64,000 bases of DNA from an uncultured Prevotella sp. (lineage in GTDB: Bacteria > Bacteroidota > Bacteroidia > Bacteroidales > Bacteroidaceae), in NCBI GenBank assembly GCA_963931275.1, contig OZ006992.1, positions 63,810 to 127,809 of the forward strand, given 5' to 3'. Under the pieces are notes generated by a model. The model did no database searches, was not told the DNA's origin, and saw only the letters and a program-made list of their open reading frames with translations. Below are positions 10,702-61,337 of the stretch, piece after piece. Made by a program: the position numbers and the translations under genes. Each line of letters starts with the position of its first letter. The first letter of the stretch is position 1.

Positions 10702-10801
10702 AATTCATAATTCACGATTCATAATGCATGATTGGGTCGGGTTCAGACAATACGCAGAGGCGTATGCCAAATTGTGAATTATGAATTGTGGATTATGAAT
10801 T
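10702..10801. repeat. periodic-unit hairpin between ptb and buk
   Basis: Arms 10702-10732 and 10770-10801 built from GAATTATGAAT-like units, ~26/31 complementary. Confidence 0.6.
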
Positions 10802-10844
10802 AGCTGTTGTGGCATTATGAATTATGAATAAGAATAAAAAAGAT

Positions 10845-11903
10845 ATGCGAATTTTAGTAATCAACCCAGGTTCTACGTCCACGAAGATTGCCGTCTACGA
10901 GGATGACAAGTCCGTATGGATGACCGGCGCGCACCATCACGTAAGCGAGCTTGCCGCATTCCAGCATATAAGTGACCAGTATGAATACCGCAAGAATTTC
11001 GTCTTGCAGCGTCTTGCCGACGCCGGCATAGACCGCCATTTCGACGCTGTCATCGGGCGCGGCGGCTTGTTGCATCCTCTCGCCGGCGGCGTTTACGTTG
11101 TCAACGACAAGATGAAGCATGACCTGATGCACGCCGAGCGCGAGCATGCATGCAACCTCGGCGCGCTCATCGCGGCCGAAATCGCCGACGAGTGCGGCTG
11201 TCCCGCTTATATCGCCGACCCCGTAGTGGTTGACGAGATGCGCCCCGAGGCTCGTTATACGGGCTTCCCGGGAGTTGACAGGAAGTCGATTTTCCATGCC
11301 CTCAACCAAAAGGCCGTGGCGCGAAAGTACGCCACTTCAGTTGGAAAGAAGTATGAGGACATGCGCCTGATAGTAGCCCACATAGGCGGAGGTATATCCG
11401 TCGGCGCGCACGTTTTGGGCAAGGTGGTTGACGTCAACAACGCCCTTGACGGCGAAGGACCGTTCTCTCCCGAGCGTGCCGGCACCGTTCCGACAGGCCA
11501 GTTGGTTGACATCTGCTTCAGCGGACAGTACACAAAGAAGCAGGTTAAGCAGATGATAAGCGGCAAGGGCGGACTTGCAGCCCTGCTCGGCGAGACAGAC
11601 ATGATAACCATCGACCGCAAGGCCGAGGACGGCGAACATCCTTACAAGGAGGTGATTGACGCCATGATGTACACCATCGCCAAGCAGATAGGGGCTATGT
11701 ACGTAGCCATGGAGGGCAAGGCTGAGGCCATAATCCTGACAGGAGGCATCGCGCACAGTGACTATTGCATGCCTATATTGAGCCGCCAGATTGACTATCT
11801 CGCCCCAGTAGTAATCATGCCGGGCGAGAACGAGATGGGTTCGCTGGCCTACAACGCCCTCGGCGTGCTGCGCGGCGAACTGCCTTTGCTCGAATACGAA
11901 TGA
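10845..11903 (+). CDS. buk: butyrate kinase
   Basis: MRILVINPGSTSTKIAVYEDDK..., HIGGGISVGAH, ILTGGIAHS. Start placed at ATG 10845. Confidence 0.92.
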   Translation: MRILVINPGSTSTKIAVYEDDKSVWMTGAHHHVSELAAFQHISDQYEYRKNFVLQRLADAGIDRHFDAVIGRGGLLHPLAGGVYVVNDKMKHDLMHAEREHACNLGALIAAEIADECGCPAYIADPVVVDEMRPEARYTGFPGVDRKSIFHALNQKAVARKYATSVGKKYEDMRLIVAHIGGGISVGAHVLGKVVDVNNALDGEGPFSPERAGTVPTGQLVDICFSGQYTKKQVKQMISGKGGLAALLGETDMITIDRKAEDGEHPYKEVIDAMMYTIAKQIGAMYVAMEGKAEAIILTGGIAHSDYCMPILSRQIDYLAPVVIMPGENEMGSLAYNALGVLRGELPLLEYE

Positions 11904-11936
11904 TTTTTTGAATTAAGATTGAGGGCATTTTAAGTT

Positions 11937-12024
11937 AAGAATTAAGAGTTAAGGATTAAGAAAACCACCATAGTTAAATCATGGGCAAAGCATGTTTTCT
12001 TAATCCTTAACTCTTAATTCTTAA
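11937..12024. repeat. periodic-unit hairpin, 30-bp perfect stem
   Basis: TAAGAATTAAGAGTTAAGGATTAAGAAAAC (11937-11966) is exactly complementary to 11995-12024. Loop 28 nt. Confidence 0.85.
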
Positions 12025-12215
12025 TTATATTGTCTTTCCCTTGCAGCCGTAATGTAAAAAACGATAGATACCTTTGCCGTAGACTAAATGAGGTATCTGT
12101 ATGTTTGATTTCTTCATAAACGTCATTTCACAGCGGGCCATGCCGGGCTTCACAGTAAGCCGGGCGTGGCCTTTTTGCATGTTTGGCGTTGAGTGGAGCT
12201 TAAAATGTTGACGGT

Positions 12216-13643
12216 ATGAAGGCGAAAGTGTTGTTTGCGTTGCTGCTGTGCGCGGTGTTCATGGGCAGCGGAGTTGCCCGACAGACGGTTTTCAACGTGT
12301 CGGGCAGGGTGGTAGATACGGCCGGGCGGGGCGTAGCGGGCGTCGTTGTGAACAACGGGACGCGCTTCACCACGACCGACGGGGACGGCCGCTGGTCGCT
12401 GATGACCGACACATTGACGAGCAAGTACATATCAATAACCACCCCGGCCGACTTCTGTTTGCCTTCAACCGATGGTCTTGCGTCCGGCTTTTATGTGTCG
12501 GTGGGCGAGGCTCTCGCCGCCGGCGGGCACGACTTCGTGTTGGAGCGGCGCAAGGAAAGGGTTGAGAACTTTTATTACATAGCCATATCAGACCCCCAGG
12601 TGCGCGACGAGAGCGACATGCGCCGGTGGCTCGGCGAGACCATGCCCGACATCCGCCACACAGTGGACTCGCTCAAGCGGCGGCGCGAGGTGGTGGGAAT
12701 CGCGCTGGGAGACATCGTTTTCGACAACATGCTTTTGTTTGATGATTATAGGCAGTCGGTGAGGAACACGGGCATGACCCTTTACCATTGCATAGGCAAC
12801 CACGACTTCGACAAACGTTGGCAAGAGCTGCACAACATGCGGCTTGGCACTCCCGTGTACGCCGAGATGGAGTATAACAAACGGTTCGGCCCGACCGACT
12901 ACTCGTTCAACATGGGCAAGGCGCACGTCGTGACGATGAAAAACATCAACTACGTTGGCAATGGGCAGTACATTGAAAGCATGACTGACCGGCAGATGGA
13001 GTGGCTCGAAAAGGACCTGAGCTACGTGCCGAAAGGCTCTCTTGTCATACTGAACATGCACGCGGCGGGATGGAACACCGTGGCGGGAAGCGGCAACATG
13101 CGCAACGCCAGTAGGTTGGCCGAGGTTCTGAAGGGCTACCGTGTACACGTGTTCTGCGGGCATACGCATTTCTTCCAGAACGTTGAAGTGGCGCAAGAGC
13201 TTTACCAGCACAACATCGGGGCTGCTTGCGGGGCTTGGTGGACGGGGCATATCAACCGCTGCGGCGCGCCCAACGGATACATGATAGTTGACGTCAACGG
13301 CGACGAACTGGCATGGCATTACAAGCCGACGGGCTTCCCTGTGAGCCGACAATTCGACGTCTACGGGCAAGGCCGGTTCCCGACGCAAAAGGATTACGTC
13401 GTGGCCAACGTGTGGGATTATGACCGGAAATGGCGGGTGGAGTGGTTTCAGGACGGGCGGCCGATGGGCGCGATGGAGCGTTTCACCGACGTTGACGGCA
13501 ACTATGCTTCGCGTTTCGCCGAGCGTCAGGCCGATTCAGAGACGCCGCACCTGTTCCGTTGTCGTCCCGAAGGCAAGTATAAGGAGATAAAAGTTGTTGT
13601 CACCAACCGTTTCGGCGAGCGTTATTCAGCCGTGGTGAAATAG
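12216..13643 (+). CDS. secreted calcineurin-like metallophosphoesterase with N-terminal CarboxypepD_reg-like domain
   Basis: Signal peptide. VSGRVVDTAGRGVAGVVV..TDGDGRWSL. Metallophosphatase motifs ISDPQ, GDIVFD, GNHD, NMHA, GHTH. Confidence 0.85.
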   Translation: MKAKVLFALLLCAVFMGSGVARQTVFNVSGRVVDTAGRGVAGVVVNNGTRFTTTDGDGRWSLMTDTLTSKYISITTPADFCLPSTDGLASGFYVSVGEALAAGGHDFVLERRKERVENFYYIAISDPQVRDESDMRRWLGETMPDIRHTVDSLKRRREVVGIALGDIVFDNMLLFDDYRQSVRNTGMTLYHCIGNHDFDKRWQELHNMRLGTPVYAEMEYNKRFGPTDYSFNMGKAHVVTMKNINYVGNGQYIESMTDRQMEWLEKDLSYVPKGSLVILNMHAAGWNTVAGSGNMRNASRLAEVLKGYRVHVFCGHTHFFQNVEVAQELYQHNIGAACGAWWTGHINRCGAPNGYMIVDVNGDELAWHYKPTGFPVSRQFDVYGQGRFPTQKDYVVANVWDYDRKWRVEWFQDGRPMGAMERFTDVDGNYASRFAERQADSETPHLFRCRPEGKYKEIKVVVTNRFGERYSAVVK

Positions 13644-13669
13644 TTTGCATGAATGAGAAAAAGTATTCC

Positions 13670-14020
13670 TCATCGTATTTGTTTTAGTCCGTTTGCTTCA
13701 AGCAACCTGTCAATTTCTGTGGCTGATATGCTTTCGCGTTCGGACTTGTCATAGATATATAGCAGGTTTATTTCCGTTTCGTCAACTGAGGCGACCACTG
13801 TCAATGTAATCACCCTTGCTCCGCCGCTTTTCCCTTTGCCCTTTGAGGCTATGCGCATGCGTATTTTTCTTAGTCCGTTGCCCAAGTCTGTGCCGAGATA
13901 AGGGTTTGCAAGAATGTCGTCTCTCAGCATTTTAAGGTCAGGCACTATTGAGCGGTAACGTTTGCTTAGGCGTTTGACTTCCCTGTCAAACGTAGCCAAA
14001 GACTCAATCCTATACCGCAT
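13670..14020 (-). CDS. type II toxin, RelE/ParE superfamily
   Basis: 116 aa. ...LRKIRMRIASKGKGKSGGARVITL..., typical of RelE/HigB-like toxins. Overlaps the upstream small ORF by 11 nt. Confidence 0.8.
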   Translation of the reverse strand: MRYRIESLATFDREVKRLSKRYRSIVPDLKMLRDDILANPYLGTDLGNGLRKIRMRIASKGKGKSGGARVITLTVVASVDETEINLLYIYDKSERESISATEIDRLLEANGLKQIR

Positions 14021-14240
14021 TTTCCAATTCTTTTATCAGTTCGTCAAGTGGTCTTTTCCTGCCTGCTTTCATGTCTTTTAGGCCAGAGTCGATTCCTGCA
14101 AGGATTTCCTCTTTGCTGATACTGTCTTCTTTTTTGCTTTCCAAGTTCTCGTGCAGTTTTTCCAAAAGCCATTTCTGGTTGTTGACAGATAGGCTCTGGA
14201 TGGTTTGCCACAGACTTTCCAATGATATTGTCGCTTTCAT
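14010..14240 (-). CDS. putative antitoxin partner
   Basis: 76 aa from ATG 14240 (MKATISLESLWQTIQ...). Acidic and helical. Its stop overlaps the toxin start. Confidence 0.65.
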   Translation of the reverse strand: MKATISLESLWQTIQSLSVNNQKWLLEKLHENLESKKEDSISKEEILAGIDSGLKDMKAGRKRPLDELIKELENAV

Positions 14241-14349
14241 TTCCAGTTCCTCCTTTGTTTGTTTCTCAAATGCAAATATACTTATTATTCCTATAAGTTG
14301 CAAGAGTTTTCATGCCAATGAGTGGCTTTTTTGTTGGCAAGGGTTGTCG

Positions 14350-14435
14350 CGCGGTTTTCCGTTTTGTGGCCTTTTGCCGTGCGGAAGGCCGCCTTTTGAG
14401 CGATGAAAGGCCGTCTTTTGCACGATGAAACGCGG
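14350..14435. repeat. REP-like palindromic element
   Basis: GTGGCCTTTTGCCGTGCGGAAGGCCGCCTTTTGAGCGATGAAAGGCCGTCTTTTGCACGATGAAAC. Confidence 0.75.
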
Positions 14436-14597: not shown

Positions 14598-14624
14598 CAA
14601 CACAGATTACAAAAAATCATTGTC

Positions 14625-16128: not shown

Positions 16129-16242
16129 GAAGTTATAGAATTTAAAGAAGTTACAGAAGTTAAAGCCATTACCATTAATAAATAATGTGCCATTAATGCA
16201 TTTGGCTTTAACTTCTGTAACTTCTTTAAATTCTATAACTTC
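16129..16242. repeat. periodic-unit hairpin, 39-bp perfect stem (GAAGTTAAAG units)
   Basis: GAAGTTATAGAATTTAAAGAAGTTACAGAAGTTAAAGCC (16129-16167) is exactly complementary to 16204-16242. Loop 36 nt. Confidence 0.9.
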
Positions 16243-16352: not shown

Positions 16353-17198
16353 ATGAAACTTATAGCAAACACCGAGTTTGGTGGCGAACGCCCGTTGTTC
16401 GCCTCGCACGACCTTCATCTTGACAATGTTACCATCCGTGAGGGCGAGTCGGCCATCAAGGAATGCAGCAACATTGTGGCTACCAACTGCCGCTTTGAGG
16501 GCAATTATCCCTTCTGGCACGTCCACGGCTTCACCATCCAAGACTGTTATTTCGCCGTGGGGGGCCGCTCCGCCCTGTGGTATTCTGACCACTTGAAGAT
16601 GAAAGACACGGTGATTGACGCGCCGAAGATGTTCCGTGAGATGAACGACATCGACATTGAGAACGTCGAGATGAACGATGCTGACGAGGTGTTCTGGCGT
16701 TGCAACCGCATCAACGTCAAGAACCTGAAGCTGCACGGGGGCACTTACCCATTCATGTTCAGCAGCGACATCCGTGTTGACGGCCTTGAGAGTGACAGCA
16801 AGTACGTCTTCCAGTACGTGAAGAACGTTGAAATCCACAACGCCAAAATCACTACGAAAGACGCTTTCTGGGAAGTGGAGAACGTCACGATTTATGACTC
16901 TGAGCTGAACGGAGAGTATCTTGGGTGGCACTCCAAGAACCTGCGTCTCGTGAATTGCCACATCTCCGGCGAGCAGCCTCTTTGCTATGCGCACGACCTT
17001 GTGCTTGAGAACTGCACTTTCGATGCCTCTTGTGACCGTGCGTTCGAGTATTCAACGCTCAACGCCGACATACGTGGAGCTGTAACGAACATCAAGAACC
17101 CCACATCGGGTCGTATCGTGGCAGATTCCATCGGGTCGGTAACGCTTGACGAGAACATCAAGTCTCCCGCCGATTGTGAAATCAAGACAAGGGGTTAG
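16353..17198 (+). CDS. DUF3737-like right-handed beta-helix protein
   Basis: 281 aa with repetitive ...N[VC].[IL].[DN]...G pattern. The antisense 249-aa ORF is judged spurious. Confidence 0.75.
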   Translation: MKLIANTEFGGERPLFASHDLHLDNVTIREGESAIKECSNIVATNCRFEGNYPFWHVHGFTIQDCYFAVGGRSALWYSDHLKMKDTVIDAPKMFREMNDIDIENVEMNDADEVFWRCNRINVKNLKLHGGTYPFMFSSDIRVDGLESDSKYVFQYVKNVEIHNAKITTKDAFWEVENVTIYDSELNGEYLGWHSKNLRLVNCHISGEQPLCYAHDLVLENCTFDASCDRAFEYSTLNADIRGAVTNIKNPTSGRIVADSIGSVTLDENIKSPADCEIKTRG

Positions 17199-19571: not shown

Positions 19572-19583
19572 AAATAGGGAATG

Positions 19584-19680
19584 GAGAATTGAGAATTGGG
19601 AATGGAAAATTATGATTTGTCTTGTGGATTAACGGACTGCAGAAGTAATCATAATTCTCCATTCCCAATTATCAATTCTC
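19584..19680. repeat. periodic-unit hairpin between convergent genes
   Basis: Arms 19584-19617 and 19647-19680, 32/34 complementary (GAGAATTGGGAATGG units). The right arm overlaps the tlpA-like stop. Confidence 0.8.
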
Positions 19681-20209
19681 AATTTAATTTGGAAAACCGC
19701 CTCGCGGCCAGTGTGTCGCCCATGGCTTTGACATCGACCGTGGCGAAGTCAACCTTGCCCTCGGGGTCGATGAGGTAGAGCGTGGGTATCCACCTTACGT
19801 TATACAGCGTGGCATACGCGCTTTCACGCCACGGCTTGCCCTCAAGGTGCTGCATCCAGTACAGCTCGTTCTCCTCGATGTACGCGCTCCACTGCTCCTC
19901 GTCTTCGTCAAACGATACGCCCACCATCGTCAGCCCCCGCTCGGCGTAGGCTTCATATATGCGCTTCATTTCGGGCGTGGCCTCCTGGCAGTCGGGGCAC
20001 CATGACGCCCAAAACTCTATCAGCACATACCCGCCGCGCAGTTCGCTCAGCCGGATGCCGTCAGGCCGTTCGGCCGTCAGGAGCGTGATGTCGGGCGCGG
20101 CCGTGCCCTTTTCGAGCAGCCCCTTGCCGTACTCGCTCGTGCCGTGTCCGTCTATCGTACACGAGATTATGCATAAGGCCAAGGCCGCGAAAGCCAAAAT
20201 ATTCTTCAT
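19679..20209 (-). CDS. TlpA/redoxin-family thiol-disulfide oxidoreductase lipoprotein
   Basis: MKNILAFAALALCIISC lipobox and WASWCPDC active site. Start moved to ATG 20209. Confidence 0.88.
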   Translation of the reverse strand: MKNILAFAALALCIISCTIDGHGTSEYGKGLLEKGTAAPDITLLTAERPDGIRLSELRGGYVLIEFWASWCPDCQEATPEMKRIYEAYAERGLTMVGVSFDEDEEQWSAYIEENELYWMQHLEGKPWRESAYATLYNVRWIPTLYLIDPEGKVDFATVDVKAMGDTLAARRFSKLN

Positions 20210-23623: not shown

Positions 23624-23998
23624 ATGAATAGAACGGATACAGACATGGCACTCTTTCCGCAGTGCCCGATAAGGAATGTGTTGTCGAGGATAGGCGACAA
23701 GTGGTCGATGCTGGTGCTTTTCACGCTTGAAAAGTATGGTGTCCTGCGCTTCAACGGCCTGAAGCTGTACATCCCCGACATATCGAAGAAGATGCTTTCC
23801 GCGGTGCTGAAGACGCTTGAGGCTGACGGCTTGGTGTCAAGGAAGGTGTACGCCGAAGTGCCGCCGAGGGTGGAGTACGGCCTGACGGAGCGCGGGATGA
23901 CGCTCATTCCGCTTATTGACAACCTGATAAGCTGGGCGAAAGCCAATATGGATGACATATTGGCGGACAGGAACAATTATTTAATTCATAATGCATAA
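23624..23998 (+). CDS. HxlR-family winged-helix transcriptional regulator
   Basis: CPIRNVLSRIGDKWSMLVLFTL...RFNGLK..I..ISKKMLSAVLKTLEADGLVSRKVY.EVPPRVEYGLTERG. Start placed at ATG 23624. Confidence 0.9.
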   Translation: MNRTDTDMALFPQCPIRNVLSRIGDKWSMLVLFTLEKYGVLRFNGLKLYIPDISKKMLSAVLKTLEADGLVSRKVYAEVPPRVEYGLTERGMTLIPLIDNLISWAKANMDDILADRNNYLIHNA

Positions 23999-24081
23999 TG
24001 CACAATTCATAATAAGGCCTACGGTCAATGAGGAGACGGTGCGCAGCTTTATTATGAATTGTGCATTATGCATTATGAATT
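23983..24081. repeat. periodic-unit hairpin, 33-bp perfect stem, between convergent hxlR and nadB
   Basis: AATTCATAATGCATAATGCACAATTCATAATAA (23983-24015) is exactly complementary to 24049-24081. The left arm encodes the last residues and the stop of hxlR. Confidence 0.88.
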
Positions 24082-24085
24082 GAAA

Positions 24086-27241: not shown

Positions 27242-27251
27242 GTCTTTTTTG

Positions 27252-27440
27252 GGAAGTTAAAGAAGTTATAGAATTTAAAGAAGTTAAAGACAAGTGTTTT
27301 GCTGCTTGCGTTTTTTGGAAGTTAAAGAAGTTATAGAATTTAAAGGAGTTAAAGCCAAATGCTTTGCCGATTGCGTTTTTTTTGGAAGTTAAAGAAGTTA
27401 TAGAAGTTAAAGGAATTAAAGCCAAGTGCTTTGCTCTTTG
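27252..27440 (+). repeat. three direct tandem copies (~65-67 nt) of a single hairpin arm plus junction
   Basis: Units start at 27252, 27317 and 27384: GGAAGTTAAAGAAGTTATAGAATTTAAAG[AG]AGTTAAAG[AC]C-A[AG][AG]TG(C)TTTGC.... All are in one orientation, with no complementary partner nearby. Confidence 0.85.
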
Positions 27441-29814: not shown

Positions 29815-30337
29815 TGAAGTTAGCAGGAGTTAACGGGAGTTAGGCGCTTCGCGCCGGAGTTAACGGACATGTGCCTTGTTGCTGATTACGGCTATATGTC
29901 GTCTTTTATTCCGTTGTTCTTTATTATTCCCTTACAATATGAATTCAGATACCAACTTGTTTTTCAATCAATGCCTGAAGGCTTTTCGCGTCTTCGGTAG
30001 TTATGTATTTCAGGTCTGTTGCCAAGATGATGTAATATCTGCATTCTTCCAGACTACCTTGGGCTATATTCAGAAATCTAAGTTTATCCGCTTTACCCAA
30101 TTTTCTGTATCCTTCAGCTATGTTTGAAGGAATAGACACCGCTGCTCTTTGGAATTGTGAAGTTAATCCGAATGCTTCTGTGGAAGGAAACTTTTTCGTC
30201 ATTTCATATACGGATAACACAAATTCATGTGCTATCTGCCAAGCTACTATGTTTTTGAAGTTGTTTGTCATAAAAGCATTTGTCTGTTAACTCCAGCGAG
30301 CGTAGCGAGCTAATTCCTGTTAACTCCAGCTTACTCC
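29815..30337 (-). mobile_element. inverted-repeat cassette 1 enclosing a four-helix-bundle ORF
   Basis: Arms 29815-29868 and 30282-30337 (GGAGTTAAC units, ~80% complementary). Fills the 552-bp etfA-acd spacer to within 12-18 nt of both genes. Confidence 0.7.
29945..30271 (-). CDS. four-helix-bundle protein (23S rRNA IVS protein / Avd-like family), possibly C-terminally short
   Basis: MTNNFKNIVAWQIAHEFVLSVYEMTKKFP...FQRAAVSIPSNIAEGYRK...AQGSLEECRYYIILA. 108 aa. Confidence 0.85.
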   Translation of the reverse strand: MTNNFKNIVAWQIAHEFVLSVYEMTKKFPSTEAFGLTSQFQRAAVSIPSNIAEGYRKLGKADKLRFLNIAQGSLEECRYYIILATDLKYITTEDAKSLQALIEKQVGI

Positions 30338-31372: not shown

Positions 31373-31382
31373 GTTTTCTTTA

Positions 31383-31917
31383 AGAATTTATAGAATTTAA
31401 AGAAGTTATAGAAGTTAAAGCCATTTGCTTTTATGGATGTATCATTCCATGGTTTCGCAGAATGTGCTTTCTTTGATTTTCCTGCTGTAGGCATTCAAAA
31501 GTCTGCTTGTGTTTTCTATTTCTTCACATAGCAAAGCATACCTGTTTTGGTCTATGTACCCCAAATCATGCGATAGTATGATGTAATACCTGCATTCTTC
31601 GAGACTGCCTTGTGAGATGTTCATAAAACGAAGTTTGTCAGCCTTGCTTATCTTTCTGTAACCTTCAGCAATATTGGCGGCAATAGAAACGGCCGCCCTT
31701 TCAAATTGTGGGCATAGGGCAAATCGTTCATGTCTTGGAAATAAACATGTTGTTTTGTATACATCCAGTACGAATTTGTGTGACGCTTGCCATGCCAAAA
31801 GATTTTGAAAGGTGTTGCTCATTTTGTTTTCTTGCTGTAAAGTATCCACGCCTTGCTGTCTGCCATGAAAGGTATTGGCTTTAACTTCTTTTACTTCTAT
31901 AACTTCTTTAACTTCCC
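31383..31917 (-). mobile_element. inverted-repeat cassette 2 enclosing a four-helix-bundle ORF
   Basis: Arms 31383-31422 and 31876-31917 (GAAGTTAWAG units, imperfect). Fills the 552-bp etfB-etfA spacer to within 7-10 nt of both genes. Confidence 0.7.
31442..31822 (-). CDS. four-helix-bundle protein (23S rRNA IVS protein / Avd-like family)
   Basis: MSNTFQNLLAWQASHKFVLDVYKTTCLFP...FERAAVSIAANIAEGYRK...SQGSLEECRYYIILS. 126 aa from ATG 31822. Confidence 0.88.
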   Translation of the reverse strand: MSNTFQNLLAWQASHKFVLDVYKTTCLFPRHERFALCPQFERAAVSIAANIAEGYRKISKADKLRFMNISQGSLEECRYYIILSHDLGYIDQNRYALLCEEIENTSRLLNAYSRKIKESTFCETME

Positions 31918-31924
31918 AATGAAT

Positions 31925-32835: not shown

Positions 32836-32876
32836 CACTTTTTTTGCGTGTCGGCAAAAGAAATGGGATTTTTTTA

Positions 32877-32989
32877 GGAGTTAAAGGAGTTAAGGGAGTC
32901 AAAGGAGTTAAGGACGCATGCTTTACGTGTTGGTAACCAACAGGGCATTTGTCTTTAACTCCTTTGACTCCCTTAACTCCTTTAACTAC
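32877..32989. repeat. periodic-unit hairpin (GGAGTTAAAG units), 37/39 stem
   Basis: GGAGTTAAAGGAGTTAAGGGAGTCAAAGGAGTTAAGGAC (32877-32915) pairs with 32951-32989. Lies just downstream of the META-domain gene. Confidence 0.88.
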
Positions 32990-34303: not shown

Positions 34304-36232
34304 ATGATAGACAAAGCCACTATTGACAAAATCATGGACGCGGCGAACATCGTTGACGTCGTGTCTGAGTTCGTCACCCTGCGAAAGGCCGGGGTGAACT
34401 ACAAGGGGCTGTGCCCGTTCCACAACGAGAAGACGCCTTCGTTCGTGGTGTCGCCCTCGAAGGGCTACTGCCACTGCTTCTCGTGCGGCAAGGGCGGCAA
34501 CGCCGTGGGCTTCATCATGGAGCATGAGCAGATGACCTACCCCGAAGCCCTGCGCTGGCTGGCCAAGAAATACAACATAGAAATCCACGAACGGGAACTG
34601 ACCGACGAGGAGAAGCGCGAGGAGAGCGAGCGCGAGAGCCTGTTCATAGTGAACGACTGGGCCTTGCATTACTTCCAGGACAATCTCATGAACACCGAGC
34701 GCGGGCGTGCCATCGGCCTTGCGTATTTCCGCTCGCGCGGCTTCCGCGACGACACCATCAGCCGCTTCCAGCTCGGTTACGCAATGCCTGAGCGCGACGC
34801 CCTGGCCAAGGCCGCAAGGGCGAAAGGCTTCAAGGAGGAGTTTCTCATAACCACGGGGCTTTGCTACCGCCGCGATGACGGCACGCTGCAAGACCGCTAC
34901 GCCGGGCGCGTCATCTTCCCCGTGCATACCGTTACGGGGCGCGTAGTGGCCTTCGGAGGCCGCATCCTGGAGAACAACAAGAAGGCGGCGAAGTATGTCA
35001 ACTCGCCCGAGTCGCTCATCTACCACAAGAGCAACGAGCTGTACGGCATATACCAGGCCAAGCACGCCATAACGAAACAGGACCGGTGCTACCTCGTAGA
35101 GGGATATATCGACGTCACGTCGATGCACCAGAGTGGCGTTGAGAACGTCGTGGCATCGTCTGGCACGTCGCTCACCACGGGGCAAATCCGCCTGATCCGC
35201 CGCTTCTCTACCAACATAACCGTGCTTTACGACGGCGACGCCGCCGGCATACATGCCTCCATACGAGGCATCGACATGCTGCTGGCCGAGGGCATGAATG
35301 TCAAGGTGTTGCTGCTGCCTGACGGCGACGACCCTGACAGCTTCGCCCAAAAGCACCCGGCGGAGGAGTTTCGCAATTACATCGAAGCCCACCAGACTGA
35401 CTTCATCGAGTTCAAGACCAACCTGCTGCTCCGTGGCGTCACCGACCCTGTAAAACGTTCGGAGGCTATCAGCAGCATAGTCAAGAGCGTGTCGGTTGTG
35501 CCCGACCAAATCACACGAGCCACGTATCTGACCGAATGCGCACATCGTCTCGGTATGAGTGAATCGACGCTGATAAACACCGCCAACCAGTTCATACGCG
35601 GCGACATTGAGGAGAAGCGCAAGGAACAGCGGCGTGAGGAGGCCAAGGCCGACGGCCCGGTGAAGCCTCTGCAGCCGCTAAACGCCACAGCGGGGCAGCC
35701 CTCTGTTGAGTACATGTTGATGCAAATGGTCGTGCGCCACGGGCAGGAGACGCTTTACAAGGACATCGAGACCGAGGACGGCGGCAAGGTTGACCTCAGC
35801 GTGTCGCAGTATGTCAGTTACGACCTCGGGGCTGACGACCTGAAGTTCAACAACGACCTGTACAATCGCATGTTGGCCGAGGCCGTGGCACACAACGACG
35901 ACGAGGGCTTCAATGCCGAGGCTTATTTCACCCATCACCCCGACATCGACATCAGCCGCACGGCCACAGACATGGCCATCGACCATTTCCAGTTGAGCAA
36001 GAGCCTGCAAGTGAAGCGCGACGAGGACACCCTGCGCAACCAGGTTGAGCATCTAATACTCGACTTCCGCATGGATTACGTCGAGCGTCACCTCAAGGAG
36101 CTGCAGCGTGAAATCAGCCTCGCGGCCAACGATACCGACAAAGTGATGAAGCTGATGGCCGAATACAAGGACATGCAAGCCATACGCAACGAAATCGCGA
36201 AAGAGCTTGGAAGCGACATATTGATTAAATGA
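34304..36232 (+). CDS. dnaG: DNA primase
   Basis: Zinc-binding CPFHNEKTPSF.V....Y.CFSCG.GG and TOPRIM EGYIDV...YDGDAAG. Confidence 0.95.
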   Translation: MIDKATIDKIMDAANIVDVVSEFVTLRKAGVNYKGLCPFHNEKTPSFVVSPSKGYCHCFSCGKGGNAVGFIMEHEQMTYPEALRWLAKKYNIEIHERELTDEEKREESERESLFIVNDWALHYFQDNLMNTERGRAIGLAYFRSRGFRDDTISRFQLGYAMPERDALAKAARAKGFKEEFLITTGLCYRRDDGTLQDRYAGRVIFPVHTVTGRVVAFGGRILENNKKAAKYVNSPESLIYHKSNELYGIYQAKHAITKQDRCYLVEGYIDVTSMHQSGVENVVASSGTSLTTGQIRLIRRFSTNITVLYDGDAAGIHASIRGIDMLLAEGMNVKVLLLPDGDDPDSFAQKHPAEEFRNYIEAHQTDFIEFKTNLLLRGVTDPVKRSEAISSIVKSVSVVPDQITRATYLTECAHRLGMSESTLINTANQFIRGDIEEKRKEQRREEAKADGPVKPLQPLNATAGQPSVEYMLMQMVVRHGQETLYKDIETEDGGKVDLSVSQYVSYDLGADDLKFNNDLYNRMLAEAVAHNDDEGFNAEAYFTHHPDIDISRTATDMAIDHFQLSKSLQVKRDEDTLRNQVEHLILDFRMDYVERHLKELQREISLAANDTDKVMKLMAEYKDMQAIRNEIAKELGSDILIK

Positions 36233-36428
36233 ATAATGAAAAATTAATGATGAATAATCGGGGATAATAATGAATGATTTGAAAAAATCCATAATGGACG
36301 AACTAACTGCGCTGGCTCATGAATGGATGTGACGATGTAACTTGACGTTTCATTTTCCGTTTCCAACGCTTTCGTACATAAAGCGGCGCGGCGTGATTTT
36401 TCATTATTCATTTTTCATTATTCATTAA
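36226..36428. repeat. periodic-unit inverted repeat (GAATAATGAAAAAT units) with long spacer
   Basis: TAAATGAATAATGAAAAAT (36226-36244) versus 36410-36428, 18/19. Additional unit copies lie on both sides. Overlaps the dnaG stop. Confidence 0.55.
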
Positions 36429-44377: not shown

Positions 44378-45895
44378 ATGATTGTAGACGAACTGGCACG
44401 CCAGATAACAGCTTCTTTCGGCTTTGCTCCCACGGCGGAACAAGCGGCCGCCGTGGATGTGTTTTGCCGTTTCATGACCGATGCCGACGACCACGCGGTC
44501 ATGATATTGCGCGGTTCGGCGGGAACGGGCAAGACCACCTTGTCGTCCGCCATTGTGAAGACGCTCGCCCGTTTGGGGCGGAAGCTCGTGCTGCTTGCCC
44601 CCACGGGGCGTGCGGCCAAGGTGTTCTCGCTGAACTCGGGCAAGCGAGCGTTGACCATACACAGGAAAATCTACCGCCAAAAGACATTCGCCGCCAGCGG
44701 GGGATGCTTCAACCTTAACGACAACCTCGCGCAAGATACGCTCTTCATAGTTGACGAAGCGTCGATGATAGCCAACGACGGGATGTCAGACACGATGTCG
44801 TTCGGCACGGGGCGACTGCTCGACGACCTCGTGTGTTACGTCTACGGCGGGCGCAACTGCCGCCTGATGCTTGTAGGCGACAAGGCGCAGCTACCGCCGA
44901 TAGGCGAGGATGAGTCGCCCGCCTTGATGTCCGCCTACATGGCCGGTTACGGCCTGAAGGTGTATGAGTGCGACCTGACCGAGGTGTTGCGCCAGGCCGA
45001 AGGCTCGGGCATATTGTACAACGCCACGGTTGTGAGGCGGATGATTACCCATGACGAGATGACCCTCTTGCCGAGAATCACCTTCTCGCGGTTCGCCGAC
45101 ATACGCATGGTGCCGGGCGACGAACTCATCGAGCAGCTTGCCGGTAGCTACTCGGCGGTGGGCGAGGACGAGACAATCGTCATCACGCGGAGCAACAAGC
45201 GCGCCAATATCTACAACGCCGGGATACGCAACATGGTGCTTGGGCGTGAAGAGGAGCTGTCAACGGGAGACATGCTCATGGTCGTGAAGAACAATTATTA
45301 TTGGTTGGAAAGGGAAAAACAGGCCATCCCTGTCTCGCCGGCGGGGATAGAACAGGCAGTCGGCAGCGGCGGTCAGCCTTCCACGCGCGGCGATGGCGGC
45401 GTGGGGCTGTTCATCGCCAACGGTGACAGGGCTTACGTGCAGCGTGTGCGCAACGTGCGTGAGCTGTACGGTTTCCGCTTCGCCGACGTGTGGCTGCAGT
45501 TCCCCGATTACGACGATTACGAGTTGCAGGTGACGATGATGGTTGACACGTTGACGTCGGAAGCCCCGGCGTTGACCCGCCAGCAGAACGAGCAGTTGTT
45601 CAATGCCGTGCTTGAGGACTATCAGGACGTGCCCCGCAAGGCCGACCGCATCAAGCGCATACGCGAGGACATGTACTATAACGCCCTGCAGGTGAAGTTC
45701 GCCTATGCCGTGACCTGCCACAAGGCGCAGGGCGGGCAGTGGGCGCATGTGTACATAGACCAGGGCTACATGACCGACGATATGCTCACGCCTGATTACA
45801 TCCACTGGCTTTACACTGCCTTCACCCGCGCCACCGAGCGGCTGTTTCTCGTCAACTGGCCGAAGGCGCAAACTCTTTTTTTAGCAGACGAGTGA
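44378..45895 (+). CDS. RecD/Pif1-like SF1 ATP-dependent DNA helicase
   Basis: Walker A GSAGTGKTT, Walker B FIVDEASM, C-terminal AVTCHKAQGGQW... Confidence 0.88.
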   Translation: MIVDELARQITASFGFAPTAEQAAAVDVFCRFMTDADDHAVMILRGSAGTGKTTLSSAIVKTLARLGRKLVLLAPTGRAAKVFSLNSGKRALTIHRKIYRQKTFAASGGCFNLNDNLAQDTLFIVDEASMIANDGMSDTMSFGTGRLLDDLVCYVYGGRNCRLMLVGDKAQLPPIGEDESPALMSAYMAGYGLKVYECDLTEVLRQAEGSGILYNATVVRRMITHDEMTLLPRITFSRFADIRMVPGDELIEQLAGSYSAVGEDETIVITRSNKRANIYNAGIRNMVLGREEELSTGDMLMVVKNNYYWLEREKQAIPVSPAGIEQAVGSGGQPSTRGDGGVGLFIANGDRAYVQRVRNVRELYGFRFADVWLQFPDYDDYELQVTMMVDTLTSEAPALTRQQNEQLFNAVLEDYQDVPRKADRIKRIREDMYYNALQVKFAYAVTCHKAQGGQWAHVYIDQGYMTDDMLTPDYIHWLYTAFTRATERLFLVNWPKAQTLFLADE

Positions 45896-45983
45896 CGAGC
45901 AGACGAGCAACAAGCAGACGAGCAATAAGCAAACAAGTGACAAGCAACAAACAAATCACCTTGTCTGCTCGTCACTCGTCTGC
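45884..45983. repeat. periodic-unit hairpin (GCAGACGAG units), 21-bp perfect stem
   Basis: GCAGACGAGTGACGAGCAGAC (45884-45904) is exactly complementary to 45963-45983. The left arm encodes the helicase C-terminus (...LADE*). Confidence 0.8.
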
Positions 45984-46053
45984 TTGTCTGCTTAAAAAGA
46001 GGCTTGTCTGCTGATAAAAATCGTAAGCAATTCAGCGTGTTTTCGTTTCAATT

Positions 46054-50070: not shown

Positions 50071-50084
50071 TATTTCGGGTGGTT

Positions 50085-50205
50085 GAAGGAGTTGGGGGAA
50101 GTCAAGGGAGTTAAAGGCAAATGTCTTTCTTTCAGATTTTTCCCAAATGCTGCGATAAGGCATCTGTCTTTAGCTCCTTTGACTTCCATTAACCCCTTTA
50201 ACTCC
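50085..50205. repeat. periodic-unit hairpin (GGAGTTAAAG/GGAAGTCAAG units) between RR and HK genes
   Basis: Arms 50085-50118 and 50166-50205, ~78% complementary. Occupies most of the 145-bp RR-HK spacer. Confidence 0.65.
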
Positions 50206-54903: not shown

Positions 54904-54919
54904 AAAATAATTAAGAGTT

Positions 54920-54992
54920 AAGAATCAAGAGCTAAGAAAAAATGCCTTGTCGGATGTTCCGACAAGGCATTTTTTCTTAGCTCTTGATTCTT
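54920..54992. repeat. periodic-unit hairpin, 34-bp perfect stem with 5-nt loop, between convergent genes
   Basis: AAGAATCAAGAGCTAAGAAAAAATGCCTTGTCGG (54920-53) ATGTT, then the exact complement at 54959-54992. Imperfect unit copies extend both arms to ~54909 and ~55028. Confidence 0.9.
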
Positions 54993-55028
54993 GATTTCTT
55001 AGCCCTTAGTTCTTAACCCTTGATTTTT

Positions 55029-56375
55029 TTACAGTCCTATCACGGATTTTTCAACCCAATAGGCCAATATTCCGAGAACGTATCCGATGAAGGCAATCCA
55101 TGAGATGCGCTTCATGTACCATACGAACGTTATCTTTTCCAGTCCCATCACGACCACTCCTGCGGCCGAACCGATGATGAGCATCGAGCCGCCGACGCCG
55201 GCGCAGTAAGCCAGGAGCTGCCAGAAGATGCCGTCCTGGGCCATGTCGCCCACTTCGGCCATCGGGTACATGCCCATGCATCCGGCCACGAGAGGCACGT
55301 TGTCAACGATGCTCGACAGCACGCCGATAAGCCCGGTCACAAGGTAATGGTTGCCGTCGAACGTTGTGTTGAGGCCCTTGCCGAGTGAAGCCAGCACGCC
55401 GATTTCCTGCAGGCAGGCCACGGCCATCAGTATGCCGAGGAAGAAGAGGATGGTACTCATGTCGATGCGTGAGATTATGCTTGCTATGCGCTTGTGCGTT
55501 CCGCCCTTCTCGTCGTGTTCAGGCAGGTGGCGGTAGAACATTTCCGTAGCCGTCCAAAGCACGCCAAGCACGAGCAGTATGCCCACGAACGGAGGCAGGT
55601 GGGTGATTGACTTGAATATGGGCACGAAGATAAGGCCGCCCACGCCGAGCCAGAACACCGTCTTGCGCTGGCCGTCAGAGAAGTTGGCGGCCACCGTGGC
55701 AGTGCCGAAGTCAGCCTTGGCCGCAACCTCGCCCTTGAGGTGCAGCGACAGGAGGTATGCCGGCACTACTACTGAAACCAACGAAGGTATGAACAGTTCC
55801 TTGATCACTCCGGCTGCGGTAATCAGTCCCTTGTTCCAGAGCATTATGGTTGTTACGTCGCCGATGGGCGAGAACGCGCCTCCCGAGTTGGCCGCAATGA
55901 TGATGAGCGAGGCGTAGATGAGGCGGTCGTTGCGGTCGGAAATGAGCTTGCGCAGGATCATCACCATCACGATGGCCGTCGTCATGTTGTCGAGAATGGC
56001 CGAAAGGAAGAACGTGAGGATGGTTATTCGCCACAGCAGGGCGCGCTTGCTCTTGGTCTTCATCATGTCGCGCACGAAGTTGAAGCCGCCGTACTGGTCA
56101 ACGGTTTCGACTATTGTCATCGCTCCCATGAGGAAGAACAGTGTGGTTGCGGTGCTTCCCAGGTGGCCTTCGATGGCCGAACTGGCCGTCGAGGCGATGT
56201 CGTCAGGCGATATTCCGATGGGGAAGTTGCCCGGGTCGAACATGTAGATGGTCCAACAGGCGACAAACATCAGCAGCGCAACCGCGGCCTTGTTGACTTT
56301 CGTAAAGCTTTCCAAGGCGATGAAAAGGTATCCGATGACGAATACCACAACGATAGTAAGTGTTAATGTTGACAT
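55029..56375 (-). CDS. nhaD: NhaD/ArsB-superfamily Na+/H+ antiporter
   Basis: 448 aa, ~12 TM. ...LSAILDN.TT... and ...SSIVDNVPLV... motifs. Confidence 0.85.
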   Translation of the reverse strand: MSTLTLTIVVVFVIGYLFIALESFTKVNKAAVALLMFVACWTIYMFDPGNFPIGISPDDIASTASSAIEGHLGSTATTLFFLMGAMTIVETVDQYGGFNFVRDMMKTKSKRALLWRITILTFFLSAILDNMTTAIVMVMILRKLISDRNDRLIYASLIIIAANSGGAFSPIGDVTTIMLWNKGLITAAGVIKELFIPSLVSVVVPAYLLSLHLKGEVAAKADFGTATVAANFSDGQRKTVFWLGVGGLIFVPIFKSITHLPPFVGILLVLGVLWTATEMFYRHLPEHDEKGGTHKRIASIISRIDMSTILFFLGILMAVACLQEIGVLASLGKGLNTTFDGNHYLVTGLIGVLSSIVDNVPLVAGCMGMYPMAEVGDMAQDGIFWQLLAYCAGVGGSMLIIGSAAGVVVMGLEKITFVWYMKRISWIAFIGYVLGILAYWVEKSVIGL

Positions 56376-56712: not shown

Positions 56713-57097
56713 GGTTCATCCGCAAACCTTTGGGATAGTACATAAAAGTCTATCCTGTCCCCGAAGGGGGCAAACTCCGCTTAACCGCCGGTGGAGTGAG
56801 CGCGGCGAACGTAACCTGCGGTAAGTCGAAACTACTCCAGCCGTCCCCGAAGGGGGCGAATGGCGTGTTGGGTTATGCGGTGGCGGGTTCTTACGGTTAT
56901 GCGGTATGTCCGTATATCCCAATAACCGTATAACCTTAAACCTTACAACCGTAAATGCCGTTCGCCCTCTTCGAGGATGATATTATTTGCGCATACATAC
57001 AGCAAGTTCCGCTTCACTCCACATGCGGTTAAGCTTAATTGGACGTCTTCGACGCCCTGCTACGCATTGTTGTCATCCCAAAGGTTTGCGGATGAAG
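56713..57097 (-). mobile_element. 385-bp MITE copy B (inverted relative to copy A)
   Basis: Same length and ~95% identity to copy A. 9-bp flanking duplication CATCCTTCG (56704-56712) / CATCTTTCG (57098-57106). Confidence 0.85.
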
Positions 57098-57140
57098 CAT
57101 CTTTCGTAATGCGGAAGATGCCATTTTACAATGTGCCGGC
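57098..57140. repeat. REP-like hairpin, right part (split by MITE copy B)
   Basis: CATCTTTCGTAATGCGGAAGATGCCATTTT. Joined to 56697-56712, it restores an AAAATGGCATC.TTCG-TAATG-CGGAAGATGCCATTTT palindrome. Confidence 0.75.
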
Positions 57141-58763: not shown

Positions 58764-58798
58764 AAAAATATAATGACATAACTTTAAAACCCGAATAA

Positions 58799-60052: not shown

Positions 60053-60065
60053 AACAGCATACAAG

Positions 60066-60120
60066 CAAACAAACGACAAGCAGACAAGGCCTCGGCTTTG
60101 CTTGCTTGTCGCCTGTTTGG
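60066..60120. repeat. imperfect periodic-unit hairpin (ACAAGCAGAC units) between rhaA and rhaT
   Basis: GCAAACAAACGACAAGCAGACAAGG versus CTTTGCTTGCTTGTCGCCTGTTTGG, ~19/24. Confidence 0.5.
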
Positions 60121-60137
60121 CGGTAAACTGACTTGAT

Positions 60138-61151
60138 ATGGAAATACTGATAGGATTAATCATTATTGCGATAGGCGCGTTCTGCCAGTCGAGTTGCTAC
60201 GTGCCTATCAACAAGATAAAGTCTTGGAGCTGGGAGTCTTACTGGCTTGTGCAAGGCGTTTTCGCGTGGCTTGTGTTCCCGTTGATGGGCGCGCTGCTCG
60301 CCGTTCCGGAGGGCAGGGGGCTTATGGAGCTGTATGCCGCCGACCCTGAGGCGTCGCTTTTGACGATGTTCTTCGGCGTGTTGTGGGGCGTAGGCGGGCT
60401 TACGTTCGGCTTGTCGATGCGTTATCTCGGCGTGGCTCTCGGCCAGAGTATCGCCCTCGGCACGTGCGCCGGACTTGGAACAGTGCTTACTCCCGTGTTC
60501 ACCGGCAACATGCAAGACCTCACTACGCCGGTAATCGTGGGCGTGGTGGTCACGCTTGCGGGCATCGCCGTCATCGGAGTGGCCGGCAACATGAAGTCGA
60601 AGTCGCTCAGCGAGGAAGAAAAGAAGAAGGCCGTTAAGGACTTCAACTTCACCAAAGGCATTATAGTGGCCCTGCTTGCGGGCTTCATGAGCGCGTGCTT
60701 CAACATCGGTTTGGGCTTCGGCGCGGACTTGAATTTCGGTGAAGAGACCGACCCCATGTTCATGACTCTGCCCGCAACGCTGCTCGTAACGATAGGAGGC
60801 TTTGTCACGAACGCCGTCTATTGTTTTTACCAGAACAGCAAGAACCATACTTGGGGTGACTATTCGCAGACGCGGCTTTACGCCAACAACATCGTGTTCT
60901 GTGCCTTGGCGGGCTTGCTTTGGTACAGTCAGTTCTTTGGGTTGAGCCTCGGCAAGGGCTTCTTGACCGATTCTGCTGTACTCATGACGTTCTCTTGGTG
61001 CATACTGATGGCGTTGAACGTAACGTTCAGCAACGTTTGGGGAATCATCCTCAAGGAGTGGAAAGGTTGCTCACGGCAGACCATCGCCGTGCTGTTGCTC
61101 GGCTTGTTGGTTCTCATCGTGTCGTCGTTCCTTCCGCAACTGCTTAAATAG
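60138..61151 (+). CDS. rhaT: L-rhamnose/H+ symporter
   Basis: 337 aa, 10 TM. GAFCQSSCYVP..K...WSWE..WL. Confidence 0.88.
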   Translation: MEILIGLIIIAIGAFCQSSCYVPINKIKSWSWESYWLVQGVFAWLVFPLMGALLAVPEGRGLMELYAADPEASLLTMFFGVLWGVGGLTFGLSMRYLGVALGQSIALGTCAGLGTVLTPVFTGNMQDLTTPVIVGVVVTLAGIAVIGVAGNMKSKSLSEEEKKKAVKDFNFTKGIIVALLAGFMSACFNIGLGFGADLNFGEETDPMFMTLPATLLVTIGGFVTNAVYCFYQNSKNHTWGDYSQTRLYANNIVFCALAGLLWYSQFFGLSLGKGFLTDSAVLMTFSWCILMALNVTFSNVWGIILKEWKGCSRQTIAVLLLGLLVLIVSSFLPQLLK

Positions 61152-61156
61152 AAAGG

Positions 61157-61243
61157 TAAAAAAGTAAAACGGTAAAAAGGTAAAACAAGCTGAAAGCGTT
61201 CTTTGCATCAACTGTTTTACCTTTTTACCGTTTTACTTTTTTA
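61157..61243. repeat. periodic-unit hairpin (GGTAAAAAG units), 31-bp perfect stem
   Basis: TAAAAAAGTAAAACGGTAAAAAGGTAAAACA (61157-61187) is exactly complementary to 61213-61243. Confidence 0.88.
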
Positions 61244-61254
61244 TTTTTATTCTT

Positions 61255-61337
61255 GTCTTTTCACCTTTTCATTGTTTTCCTTTTTCACCTTCATCCTTGT
61301 CTTTTCACCTTTTCACTGTTTCACCTTTTCACCTTTG
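61255..61337 (+). repeat. one-orientation periodic array (CTTTTCACC units)
   Basis: CTTTTCACCTTTTCATTGTTTTCCTTTTTCACCTTCATCCTTGTCTTTTCACCTTTTCACTGTTTCACCTTTTCACC. No complementary arm in the window. Confidence 0.75.

Follow-up and report, generated by a model that had tools for sequence, protein, structure and literature searches.

Intervening sequences (IVSs) of bacterial 23S rRNA are among the closest described systems to the elements reported here. Ralph and McClelland are said to have described, in 1993, such sequences in Leptospira with an S23p/PF05635 open reading frame (ORF) inside. The 23S rRNA IVSs are regarded as selfish or horizontally acquired. In Coxiella burnetii, excision by RNase III of a PF05635-bearing 23S rRNA IVS with a 28-bp terminal stem was demonstrated experimentally (PMC4990558). 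The present analysis concerns a 64,000-nucleotide stretch of DNA from an uncultured Prevotella sp. (contig OZ006992.1, positions 63,810 to 127,809; hereafter the window), in which an earlier note, made from the sequence alone, had listed long intergenic hairpins whose arms are built from short periodic units. We consider it moderately probable that these hairpins are a family of IVS-like palindromic intergenic elements, of which the full-length form is a PF05635/TIGR02436 cassette co-transcribed with its host operon. The elements have inverted arms, each composed of 2-5 tandem purine-rich units of 7-11 nt with the core RAGT (for example, GGAGTTAAA and GAAGTTAAA), and an interior that is either an ORF of approximately 110-130 codons or, in the miniature form, a short and fast-changing loop.

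The Prevotella elements have in common with 23S rRNA IVSs the gene family, a long terminal stem around the ORF and, as it would appear, transcription inside a host RNA. They differ in lying between the protein genes of operons, whereas rRNA IVSs lie in helix 25 or 45, and in that ORF-less miniatures outnumber the ORF forms in the window (at least 12 loci compared to 2). The Prevotella arms are tandem unit arrays, which may be a further difference. Two of the four defining features of an IVS, the PF05635 gene and the enclosing stem, were found, and the location in 23S rRNA was not; for that reason, the ORF forms are described as IVS-like and are not filed as rRNA IVSs.

Correia elements of Neisseria are MITEs (miniature transposable elements with inverted repeats) that form RNA hairpins, and Correia RNA is cut by RNase III. 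Both these and the REP/REPIN sequences (PMC3116915) resemble the Prevotella elements as small palindromic intergenic repeats at gene ends that are, or in our case would be, co-transcribed with their neighbors. In contrast, Correia elements and REPINs each show a single conserved sequence, and their transposase is known or inferred (RAYT for REPINs), whereas the arms here are variable unit arrays and PF05635 is the sole associated gene.

Tandem units of a similar kind have been reported from other bacteria. In Xanthomonas, (GGGAATC)n arrays occur approximately 185 times per genome, mostly with four units and with 70-75 convergent pairs, and were read as G-quadruplex (G4) motifs (Rehm et al. 2015, PMC4692102). 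Like the Prevotella arms, these are tandem purine-rich heptamers, mostly intergenic, often in inverted pairs able to form stem-loops, and usually conserved in position between species; unlike them, most Prevotella units are without G runs, and GGG is present only in alternate units of one hairpin, at 19584. The Xanthomonas paper draws no link to PF05635, and the words "S23" and "intervening" are absent from it. TAACTGA repeats of a Beggiatoaceae genome form 169 direct sets and 1 inverted set (MacGregor 2015, PMC4679880). These and the cyanobacterial short tandemly repeated repetitive (STRR) heptamers are also short tandem 7-nt intergenic units near gene ends or starts, with a patchy distribution that includes Bacteroidetes, and TAACTGA has TAACT in common with the Prevotella 3'-arm units TTAACTCC and TTAACTTC; unlike the Prevotella arms, they are nearly always direct arrays, and an enclosed gene is undescribed for them. 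The earlier note had recognized no named class with periodic arms, but the periodic-array design is not unprecedented, having been published as inverted arrays in Xanthomonas and as direct arrays in cyanobacteria and Beggiatoaceae (PMC4692102, PMC4679880).

In diversity-generating retroelements (DGRs), the protein Avd forms a positively charged pentamer and binds stem-loops of RNA, and DGR RNA pairs between sequences on either side of the template (bioRxiv 10.1101/2023.10.23.563531). Avd is the characterized homolog, a pentameric four-helix bundle; unlike a DGR, however, the window is without a reverse transcriptase, a template repeat, or a variable repeat. In the literature searched, coverage of which was incomplete, the unit strings were in no paper, TIGR02436 was unmentioned, and PF05635 appeared only in a DGR paper; nor was a description found of the link between arrays and PF05635, of the occurrence in Bacteroidales operons, of miniature forms, or of slot replacement. 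PF05635/TIGR02436 is a very large family (15,377 clusters at 50% identity, E ≤ 1e-3) with a function known only in DGRs, and the presence of its genes routinely inside tandem-unit stems in core operons (etf and acc; elements are also found in ptb-buk) of several phyla points to an RNA or DNA partner of the family that can be tested. It may also mean that the literatures on rRNA intervening sequences, on heptamer "G4" repeats, and on STRR-like arrays describe one phenomenon.

PF05635 cassettes in operon spacers

Two full-length elements are located in the etf operon of the window. Element 1 (31376..31923, minus strand) lies between the etfB stop codon and the etfA start codon. Its arms (31376-31436 and 31863-31923) consist of GAAGTTAnAG 9-mers plus the inner motif GCCAAT/GCAAATGGC and form an inverted repeat of 61 nt at 79%, and its ORF (31445-31822) encodes 126 aa. 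Element 2 (29815..30337, minus strand) lies between the etfA stop codon and the start of the acyl-CoA dehydrogenase gene (acd), with arms (29815-29880 and 30275-30337) of GGAGTTAAC units that include GC mini-hairpin modules and an ORF (29945-30271) of 108 aa. That these two hairpins contain ORFs had been noticed before, but the identity of the ORFs, which is the key to the family, had been missed. Both are co-oriented with the etf operon and match PF05635, "23S rRNA intervening sequence protein" (E = 5e-35 for element 1 and 4e-37 for element 2), and more weakly bAvd (Pfam). They also match TIGR02436, "four helix bundle protein", with 116 bits compared to a cut-off of 24, and the pentameric PDB structures 2gsc and 2rld; a match to NF033474 was below its cut-off. 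The two copies are 68% identical to one another, and in the predicted RNA fold the arms pair around the ORF (z = -4.9 for element 1 and -6.1 for element 2). In relatives whose EtfA is approximately 90% identical, the etfB-etfA-acd operon is compact, its spacers measure 3-120 nt, and a PF05635 gene is missing; both 550-nt elements are therefore absent there. The etfB|etfA spacer is 6-92 nt in L012-L014 (L-numbers are our labels for the compared relatives' loci or contigs).

A scan of one genome per species yielded 80 loci encoding PF05635 homologs, in Prevotella, Bacteroides, Parabacteroides, Phocaeicola, Paludibacter, Ignavibacteria, and Thermoguttaceae. An inverted repeat flanked the ORF with a score of ≥13 in 73 of 79 loci and ≥18 in 51, compared to 2/145 and 0/145, respectively, for control positions shifted by 1.5 kb. 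The 5' arm was always a series of tandem purine-rich units with the core RAGT (GGAGTTAAA, GAAGTTAAA, GGAGTGATAGG, AGGAGTC, CAGAAGT, GGAGTAA, GAAGTCCC, GGAGTGC); other purine-rich units in these cassettes and in those of Xanthomonas were GGAGTTA, GAAGTTA, GGAGTGA, and GGGAATC. The number of units per arm had a median of 3 and a range of 1-20, the spacing was 7-11 nt, and unit type tracked the ORF clade. The arrays enclosed a conserved motif (GCCAATAG, GACAAATG, GACATTAC) at the stem top, with the start codon approximately 10-30 nt farther on and the complement of the motif soon after the ORF stop codon. Some arms also had a GC mini-hairpin module (e.g., GGCGCTTCGCGCC and GCCGACTTCGTCGGC). The ORF form is nearly always in the orientation of its host operon: 61 of 68 cassettes had the same orientation as the upstream gene, and 56 of 68 the same as both neighbors.

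When the PDB sequence of XCC0516 was used as a probe for Xanthomonas, a PF05635 gene of the XCC0516 family was found between accB and accC in X. campestris and X. sacchari (L170 1424-1873; L172 1484-1933). Its two flanks, GGGAATCGGGAGTGGAGAATCGGGAATC and CCATTCCCCATTCTCGACTCCCTATTCCC, are inverted GGGAATC-type heptamers and belong to the repeats published as G-quadruplex motifs (PMC4692102), and the published GGGAATC inverted pairs look like the same phenomenon as the Prevotella elements. Because 73 of 79 homologous loci and Xanthomonas have inverted unit arrays, the periodic-arm stem is a hallmark of the PF05635 cassette.

It is plausible, given the RNA stem-loop binding of Avd, that the PF05635 protein binds its own stem. 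Pentamer stoichiometry was considered for the arrays and rejected, there being no preference for five units with the unit numbers and spacings given above. A different view is that the arrays are themselves the binding or structural signals, either for a repeat-binding post-transcriptional regulator or as G-quadruplexes, and that the hairpin is secondary. Solo direct arrays at 27245-27435 and 61257-61336 of the window would fit such signals, as would conservation of the arm sequence itself, beyond pairing, and proposals to this effect have been published for GGGAATC (PMC4692102) and TAACTGA (PMC4679880). However, most units (TTAAGAA, ATTCATA, GAAGTTA) are without G runs, so G-quadruplexes are not general, and the presence of both arms in 73/79 cassettes, the double changes that maintain pairing, and the lack of a fixed stoichiometry (median of 3 units per arm, spacing of 7-11 nt) make signal arrays highly improbable as the basis of the family.

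A wider extension of the IVS-like reading would place PF05635 cassettes and their ORF-less miniatures in a single pan-bacterial class, "intercistronic intervening sequences", together with rRNA IVSs, the GGGAATC "G4" repeats of Xanthomonas, and perhaps the STRR/TAACTGA arrays of cyanobacteria. A pentameric Avd-like protein would then bind the periodic arms as arrays of sites and either control cutting of the stem or mediate copying, possibly working with a host reverse transcriptase in the way of Avd in DGRs. We hold this extension to be quite unlikely; if true, it would describe a mobile element of a new kind, taken out at the RNA level with no ligation.

ORF-less hairpins and arrays of the window

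An inverted-repeat search recovered the inverted repeats at all 14 of the loci in the earlier note, which had overlooked a triple solo-arm array at 27245-27435 and an array at 61257-61336. Its proposed comparison with shuffled sequence showed the inverted repeats to be in excess: with one scoring scheme, 12 inverted repeats with a score of ≥18 and a loop of ≤100 nt were found in the window, compared to 0 in 30 block-wise dinucleotide shuffles. The arms of 9 of these 12 were period-7, -8, or -9 arrays as determined by Tandem Repeats Finder (TRF). Self-match at the best lag was 0.59-0.79 for most arms; random 35-mers averaged 0.40, with the 99th percentile at 0.61, and 3 plain GC-rich hairpins of the window gave 0.30-0.50. 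By this measure the long segments at 29815 (0.41) and 45884 (0.47) are within the random range, with periodicity visible locally. Predicted RNA stabilities ranged from -36 to -78 kcal/mol, stem GC from 0.26 to 0.51, and arm length from 25 to 60 nt. The density of the window is approximately 16 elements in 64 kb, with about one intergenic region in four occupied; two Prevotella relatives had no such elements in 21 kb each, and this density is therefore lineage-specific. A search of the window with Rfam returned nothing at gathering score and, at E ≤ 1, only weak matches to miRNA-precursor models, because the hairpins are generically long. The orientation of the arms relative to genes is uninformative, because the 5' arm of a near-perfect palindrome is identical on either strand, and the hairpins below are given without a strand.

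Several ORF-less elements are tied to the cassette by their sequences. Hairpin 16129 (16129..16242), 4 nt after a phosphodiesterase stop codon, consists of GAAGTTAnAG 9-mers with the inner motif GCCATT.../GCATTTGGC and a 40-bp perfect core. Hairpin 32877 (32876..32989), between the stop codon of a META-domain gene and the etfB promoter, has GGAGTTAAA/GGAGTCAAA 9-mers and the inner motif GACAAATGC, and hairpin 50085 (50082..50205), between response-regulator and histidine-kinase genes, has degenerate GGAGTTnnn 9-mers and the motif GGCAAATGTC over 46 nt at 78%. The solo-arm direct array at 27245..27435 (plus strand) contains 3 copies of the GAAGTTAAAG arm plus GCCAAGTGC motif (TRF period 65, 2.9 copies) with a T run before each copy, and the complementary arm is absent. 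These three hairpins and the array have 9-mers and the inner motif in common with both ORF elements, and the CAAATG inner motif is common to 16129, 27245, and the cassettes. The arms of 16129 and 27245 are approximately 85-95% identical to the arms of the etfB|etfA cassettes in L015-L018 (90-95% for 16129 against the element 1 orthologs), and GCCATTACCATT, the start of the 16129 loop, matches arm-adjacent sequence in the ORF cassettes of L017 and L018, which is the pattern expected from internal deletion. The TTAAGA hairpins, 11937 (11935..12024, downstream of buk, 31 bp perfect) and 54904 (54904..55030, between convergent genes), have AATTAAG and AGTTAAG 7-mers that look like a degenerate form of the cassette unit. 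The core of the latter (54920-54992) is 35 bp perfect with a 3-nt loop and a GC-rich center, and further unit pairs surround it. In addition, a (GTGAAAA)n hairpin of L017 has the CCAAATGC motif, and the GGGAATG and GAGAATT 7-mers of hairpin 19584 (19580..19684; between convergent DUF418 and tlpA-like genes; 38 nt, 92%) are similar to the Xanthomonas GGGAATC arrays.

The ATTCATA, AATGAAT, GCAGAC, and GGTAAAA types are tied to the cassette more weakly, by design alone. ATTCATA/ATGCATA 7-mers form a hairpin at 10701..10802, between ptb and buk and inside the operon, and the ATTCATA family is also present at 23980..24084, between the convergent hxlR and FAD oxidoreductase genes (33 bp perfect, 23983-24081), where it encodes the final hxlR codons and stop. 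Inverted arrays of AATGAAT 7-mers, 135 nt apart, fill the dnaG|PLD spacer at 36228..36426 with the dnaG stop codon in an arm, as determined by the inverted-repeat search and TRF. A hairpin of GCAGAC(G/A)AG 7-8-mers is located at 45883..45993 (22 bp perfect, 45883-45984) with the helicase stop codon in an arm; its unit type is also found in L098 at 16575-16692. A hairpin of GGTAAAAA 8-mers at 61152..61248 (31 bp perfect, 61157-61243) is followed at 61257..61336 by a direct array of approximately 10 CTTTTCAC-type units (TRF) without a complementary partner. The weak members are 60055..60130, with ACAAGC/GCAGAC units between rhaA and rhaT (37 nt, 73% complementary), and 50082-50202 (78%).

The units had been thought locus-specific, but they group into a handful of families with further occurrences at other loci and in different genomes. 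The GAAGTTAAAG family was found at ≥6 window sites, and the AATTAAG family at 2 window sites and at other loci in L053, L097, and L098. The same 32-nt arm consensus with its inner motif was present at unrelated loci and in different genomes. ORF-less periodic hairpins were also found elsewhere, including in a Thermoguttaceae metagenome-assembled genome (MAG), some of them with GC-rich units. The claim that the loci form one class is supported, and so is the claim that several arms encode the last codons or stop of the adjacent gene, the stop codon being read inside an arm for 4 genes (hxlR, the helicase gene, the tlpA-like gene, and dnaG).

Eleven of the 12 ORF-less hairpins overlap the upstream stop codon or begin ≤11 nt from it, and 0 elements were found between divergent genes. 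Five are located within likely operons (ptb|buk, etfB|etfA, etfA|acd, response regulator|kinase, and rhaA|rhaT), and the remaining elements are at convergent or operon ends. The placement near stop codons and the absence between divergent genes would be expected if the hairpins were the lineage's own terminators or 3'-end stabilizers, grown in place by replication slippage of A/T-rich flanks and immobile, with the PF05635 genes incidental. The GC-rich core at 54920, whose A6/T6 flanks run into the periodic arms, and the differences in unit number between orthologs also agree with growth in place, as do the plain GC-rich hairpins, some with T tracts, that occupy the same slots in relatives. However, a T run after the stem on the sense strand is clear in few cases only, five elements lie inside operons (ptb|buk, etfB|etfA|acd, RR|HK, and rhaA|rhaT), and the same 32-nt arm consensus and inner motif are found at unrelated loci and in other genomes. 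One slot can hold different unit families in sister genomes, and the arms are conserved above the flanking coding DNA while the loops are unrelated. We therefore consider terminators grown by slippage unlikely, and the hairpins, being AT-rich with 30-60-bp stems, mostly without T tracts, and in several cases within operons, are not classical terminators, as the earlier note had held.

Slots, arms, and loops in related genomes

The window has a GC content of approximately 0.54 and Bacteroidota-type genes (ptb-buk, etfB-etfA-acd, dnaG, a rhamnose operon, and BACON/DUF5723 proteins). Among named genomes, the MAG "uncultured Prevotella sp. BRZ_KC__bin1" is the nearest, with a 100% identical PF05635 protein and approximately 95% identity in the DNA around it, and contigs 97-100% identical to the window are present in gut metagenomes. 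Contigs with exactly identical EtfA were all 99.9-100% identical, so no strain polymorphism was visible among them; polymorphism was visible only at 80-97% nucleotide identity. A metagenome scan with Buk as the query gave only 8 close relatives, and L015 was the closest genome in the etf-slot comparisons.

Gain, loss, and replacement of elements take place at slots whose start is a stop codon or lies only a few bases from one, and the insertion and replacement differences between close lineages that the earlier note had proposed to look for are present. In close relatives, a slot may be empty or may hold an ORF cassette, an ORF-less periodic hairpin, or a plain GC-rich hairpin. The etfA|acd slot holds a GGAGTTAAC-type ORF cassette in the window, L053, L061, and L071, ORF-less GAAGTTAnAG hairpins in L017 and L018, an AGGTTTT-unit hairpin in L066, a plain GC-rich hairpin in L012, and a 25-nt spacer in L015. 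The META|etfB slot is of the GGAGTTAA type in the window, L016, L018, and L053, (GTGAAAA)n in L017, and a GC-rich hairpin in L015 and L061. After buk, a TTAAGA hairpin is found in 11 genomes, down to 80% Buk identity, and a long GC-rich inverted repeat in L097. The ATTCATA hairpin between ptb and buk is kept in L095, L097, and L101-L105, and L100 has a GC-rich hairpin there; the DUF418|tlpA slot of L097 holds a classical GC-rich terminator with a T tract. Since the more distant L053, L061, and L071 have the window's cassette, the empty etfA|acd site of L015 is best read as a clean loss. AATAA is present on both sides of element 2 in the window, which fits deletion between short direct repeats or target duplication but is only suggestive, this being one empty/filled pair and the other sites too diverged to compare.

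Terminal inverted repeats, dispersed copies with similar arms, presence/absence polymorphism, the possible AATAA duplication around element 2, and one nested case in L097 (described below) would also be features of classical MITEs, that is, deletion derivatives of DNA transposons moved in trans, in which the unit arrays are multiple transposase-binding sites as in the ends of Tn7, Mu, and Ac/Ds. However, no transposase was found in the window or the loci examined, a consistent target-site duplication was not found, and unit sequence and period (7-11 nt) vary widely between clades. With PF05635 as the sole cargo gene over three phyla plus Xanthomonas, a MITE origin is very unlikely.

The arms and loops of the hairpins behave differently from one another. 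The 11 post-buk orthologs have perfect or near-perfect arms, with perfect pairing over 30-53 bp in 7 of them; the arms there are far better conserved than the flanking coding DNA, and the loops are unrelated between lineages. Five distinct arm versions were found there, with three A-U to G-C double changes in 3 lineages; 100% of the cells were paired, which only 3/500 shuffles equaled. L095 is in a heterozygous-like state with unequal arms, and L101 has the same extra segment of approximately 23 nt in each arm. The hxlR hairpin (23980..24084) is conserved in L097 (approximately 84% nt identity), where the arms differ by a G-C to T-A double change. Loops are also flipped: the 114 nt of hairpin 16129 are exactly reverse-complemented in strain L095, and the post-buk loop of L101-L103 is flipped relative to L104/L105/L129. 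The interior is thus invertible and the arms are homogenized, and because of the concerted arm changes and flipped loops, the arms exchange at the DNA level, which supports the earlier suggestion of recombination sites.

An interior found in both orientations at two loci might suggest invertible switches (invertons) that control neighboring genes, although the two orientations were seen in different related strains, not inside one population. The segments that flip are loops of 28-34 nt without promoter-like content, an invertase or recombinase gene is not nearby, and the orientation of the ORF form is strongly biased toward the host operon, so that invertons are barely conceivable here.

If the hairpins are IVS-like elements, as we favor, they would be transcribed within the host mRNA, where the arms would form a 30-60-bp RNA duplex. 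RNase III would cut this duplex, as it does in rRNA intervening sequences with the same gene, and such cutting would explain the tolerance of elements inside essential operons (etfB-etfA-acd, ptb-buk, and accB-accC). With stems as long as or longer than those of IVSs, in co-transcribed spacers, RNase III processing may be the most economical reason for that tolerance. At operon ends, the elements would replace the plain GC-rich hairpins of relatives.

Several observations count against this account. Transcription through the stems and RNase III cleavage are steps that we infer by analogy with IVSs. Rfam found no rRNA in the window, and the elements are outside 23S rRNA helices. No transposase or recombinase was found adjoining the elements examined, in the window or the loci looked at. 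The counts from the 80 loci are not independent, since approximately 28 of them are the same etf operon in several genera, and none of the ATTCATA, AATGAAT, GCAGAC, and GGTAAAA units flanks a PF05635 ORF in those loci. Several slots hold the same hairpin down to approximately 80% flank identity; turnover is therefore slow, and evolution in place could account for part of what is seen. Finally, sense-strand G.U mismatches numbered 23 and A.C mismatches 53 in 51 ORF cassettes (L015-L094; p = 0.0008). A 5'-arm A was opposite a 3'-arm C in 41 cases and a C opposite an A in 12, compared to 23 for G.T plus T.G, so that A is more frequent in the 5' arm than in the 3' arm's complement. As G.U was rarer than A.C, the opposite of the wobble expectation, selection acting only on the sense RNA stem does not account for the result, and the mismatch pattern favors maintenance at the DNA level.

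Annotation and minor elements

The elements supply stop codons to genes of gut Prevotella and probably shape the processing of operon mRNA, and perfect palindromes of 30-50 bp with flipping loops matter for assembly and strain typing. The buk start codon is located within the continued ATTATGA unit array of the ptb|buk hairpin (10770-10829), and the Buk homologs of relatives are 7 residues shorter at the N terminus. In L097, a TTAAGAA-type inverted repeat at 14733-15107 has a 250-nt interior in which the AAAGACATTTGCC motif and vestiges of a GGAGTTAAAG-type arm are present, and looks like one element nested in another. Where the window has 13636-14248, strain L095 (97-98% identical) has, at 12812-13556, a PIN-domain toxin gene and a small partner gene instead.

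An element of approximately 385 nt occurs twice in the window in opposite orientation (27550-27935 and 56715-57096; approximately 97% identical). Terminal inverted repeats of 24 bp (GGTTCATCCGCAAACCTTTTGGAT) mark its ends, and inside are nested inverted repeats, two CCCCCTTCGGGGAC hairpins, and, in the center, a patch of units of 7-8 nt; Rfam gave no match to it. In the Hallella locus L014, termini like those of the 385-nt element surround a periodic-arm hairpin of CGAATTTT units at 5560-5800. A second, non-periodic hairpin family (GCAAAAGGGCATCTTYCGCA/TGCGRAAGATGCCCTTTTG) is present at 3601-3641, 27467-27505, and approximately 57100-57130, with 2 of the copies immediately upstream of the 385-nt element. 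TRF also detected 22-nt two-copy repeats at 14385-14430, 51677-51722, and 63898-63948, around short GC hairpins of the GGCCGCCTTTT/AAAGGCGGCC type, which are possibly the ordinary terminators of this genome.

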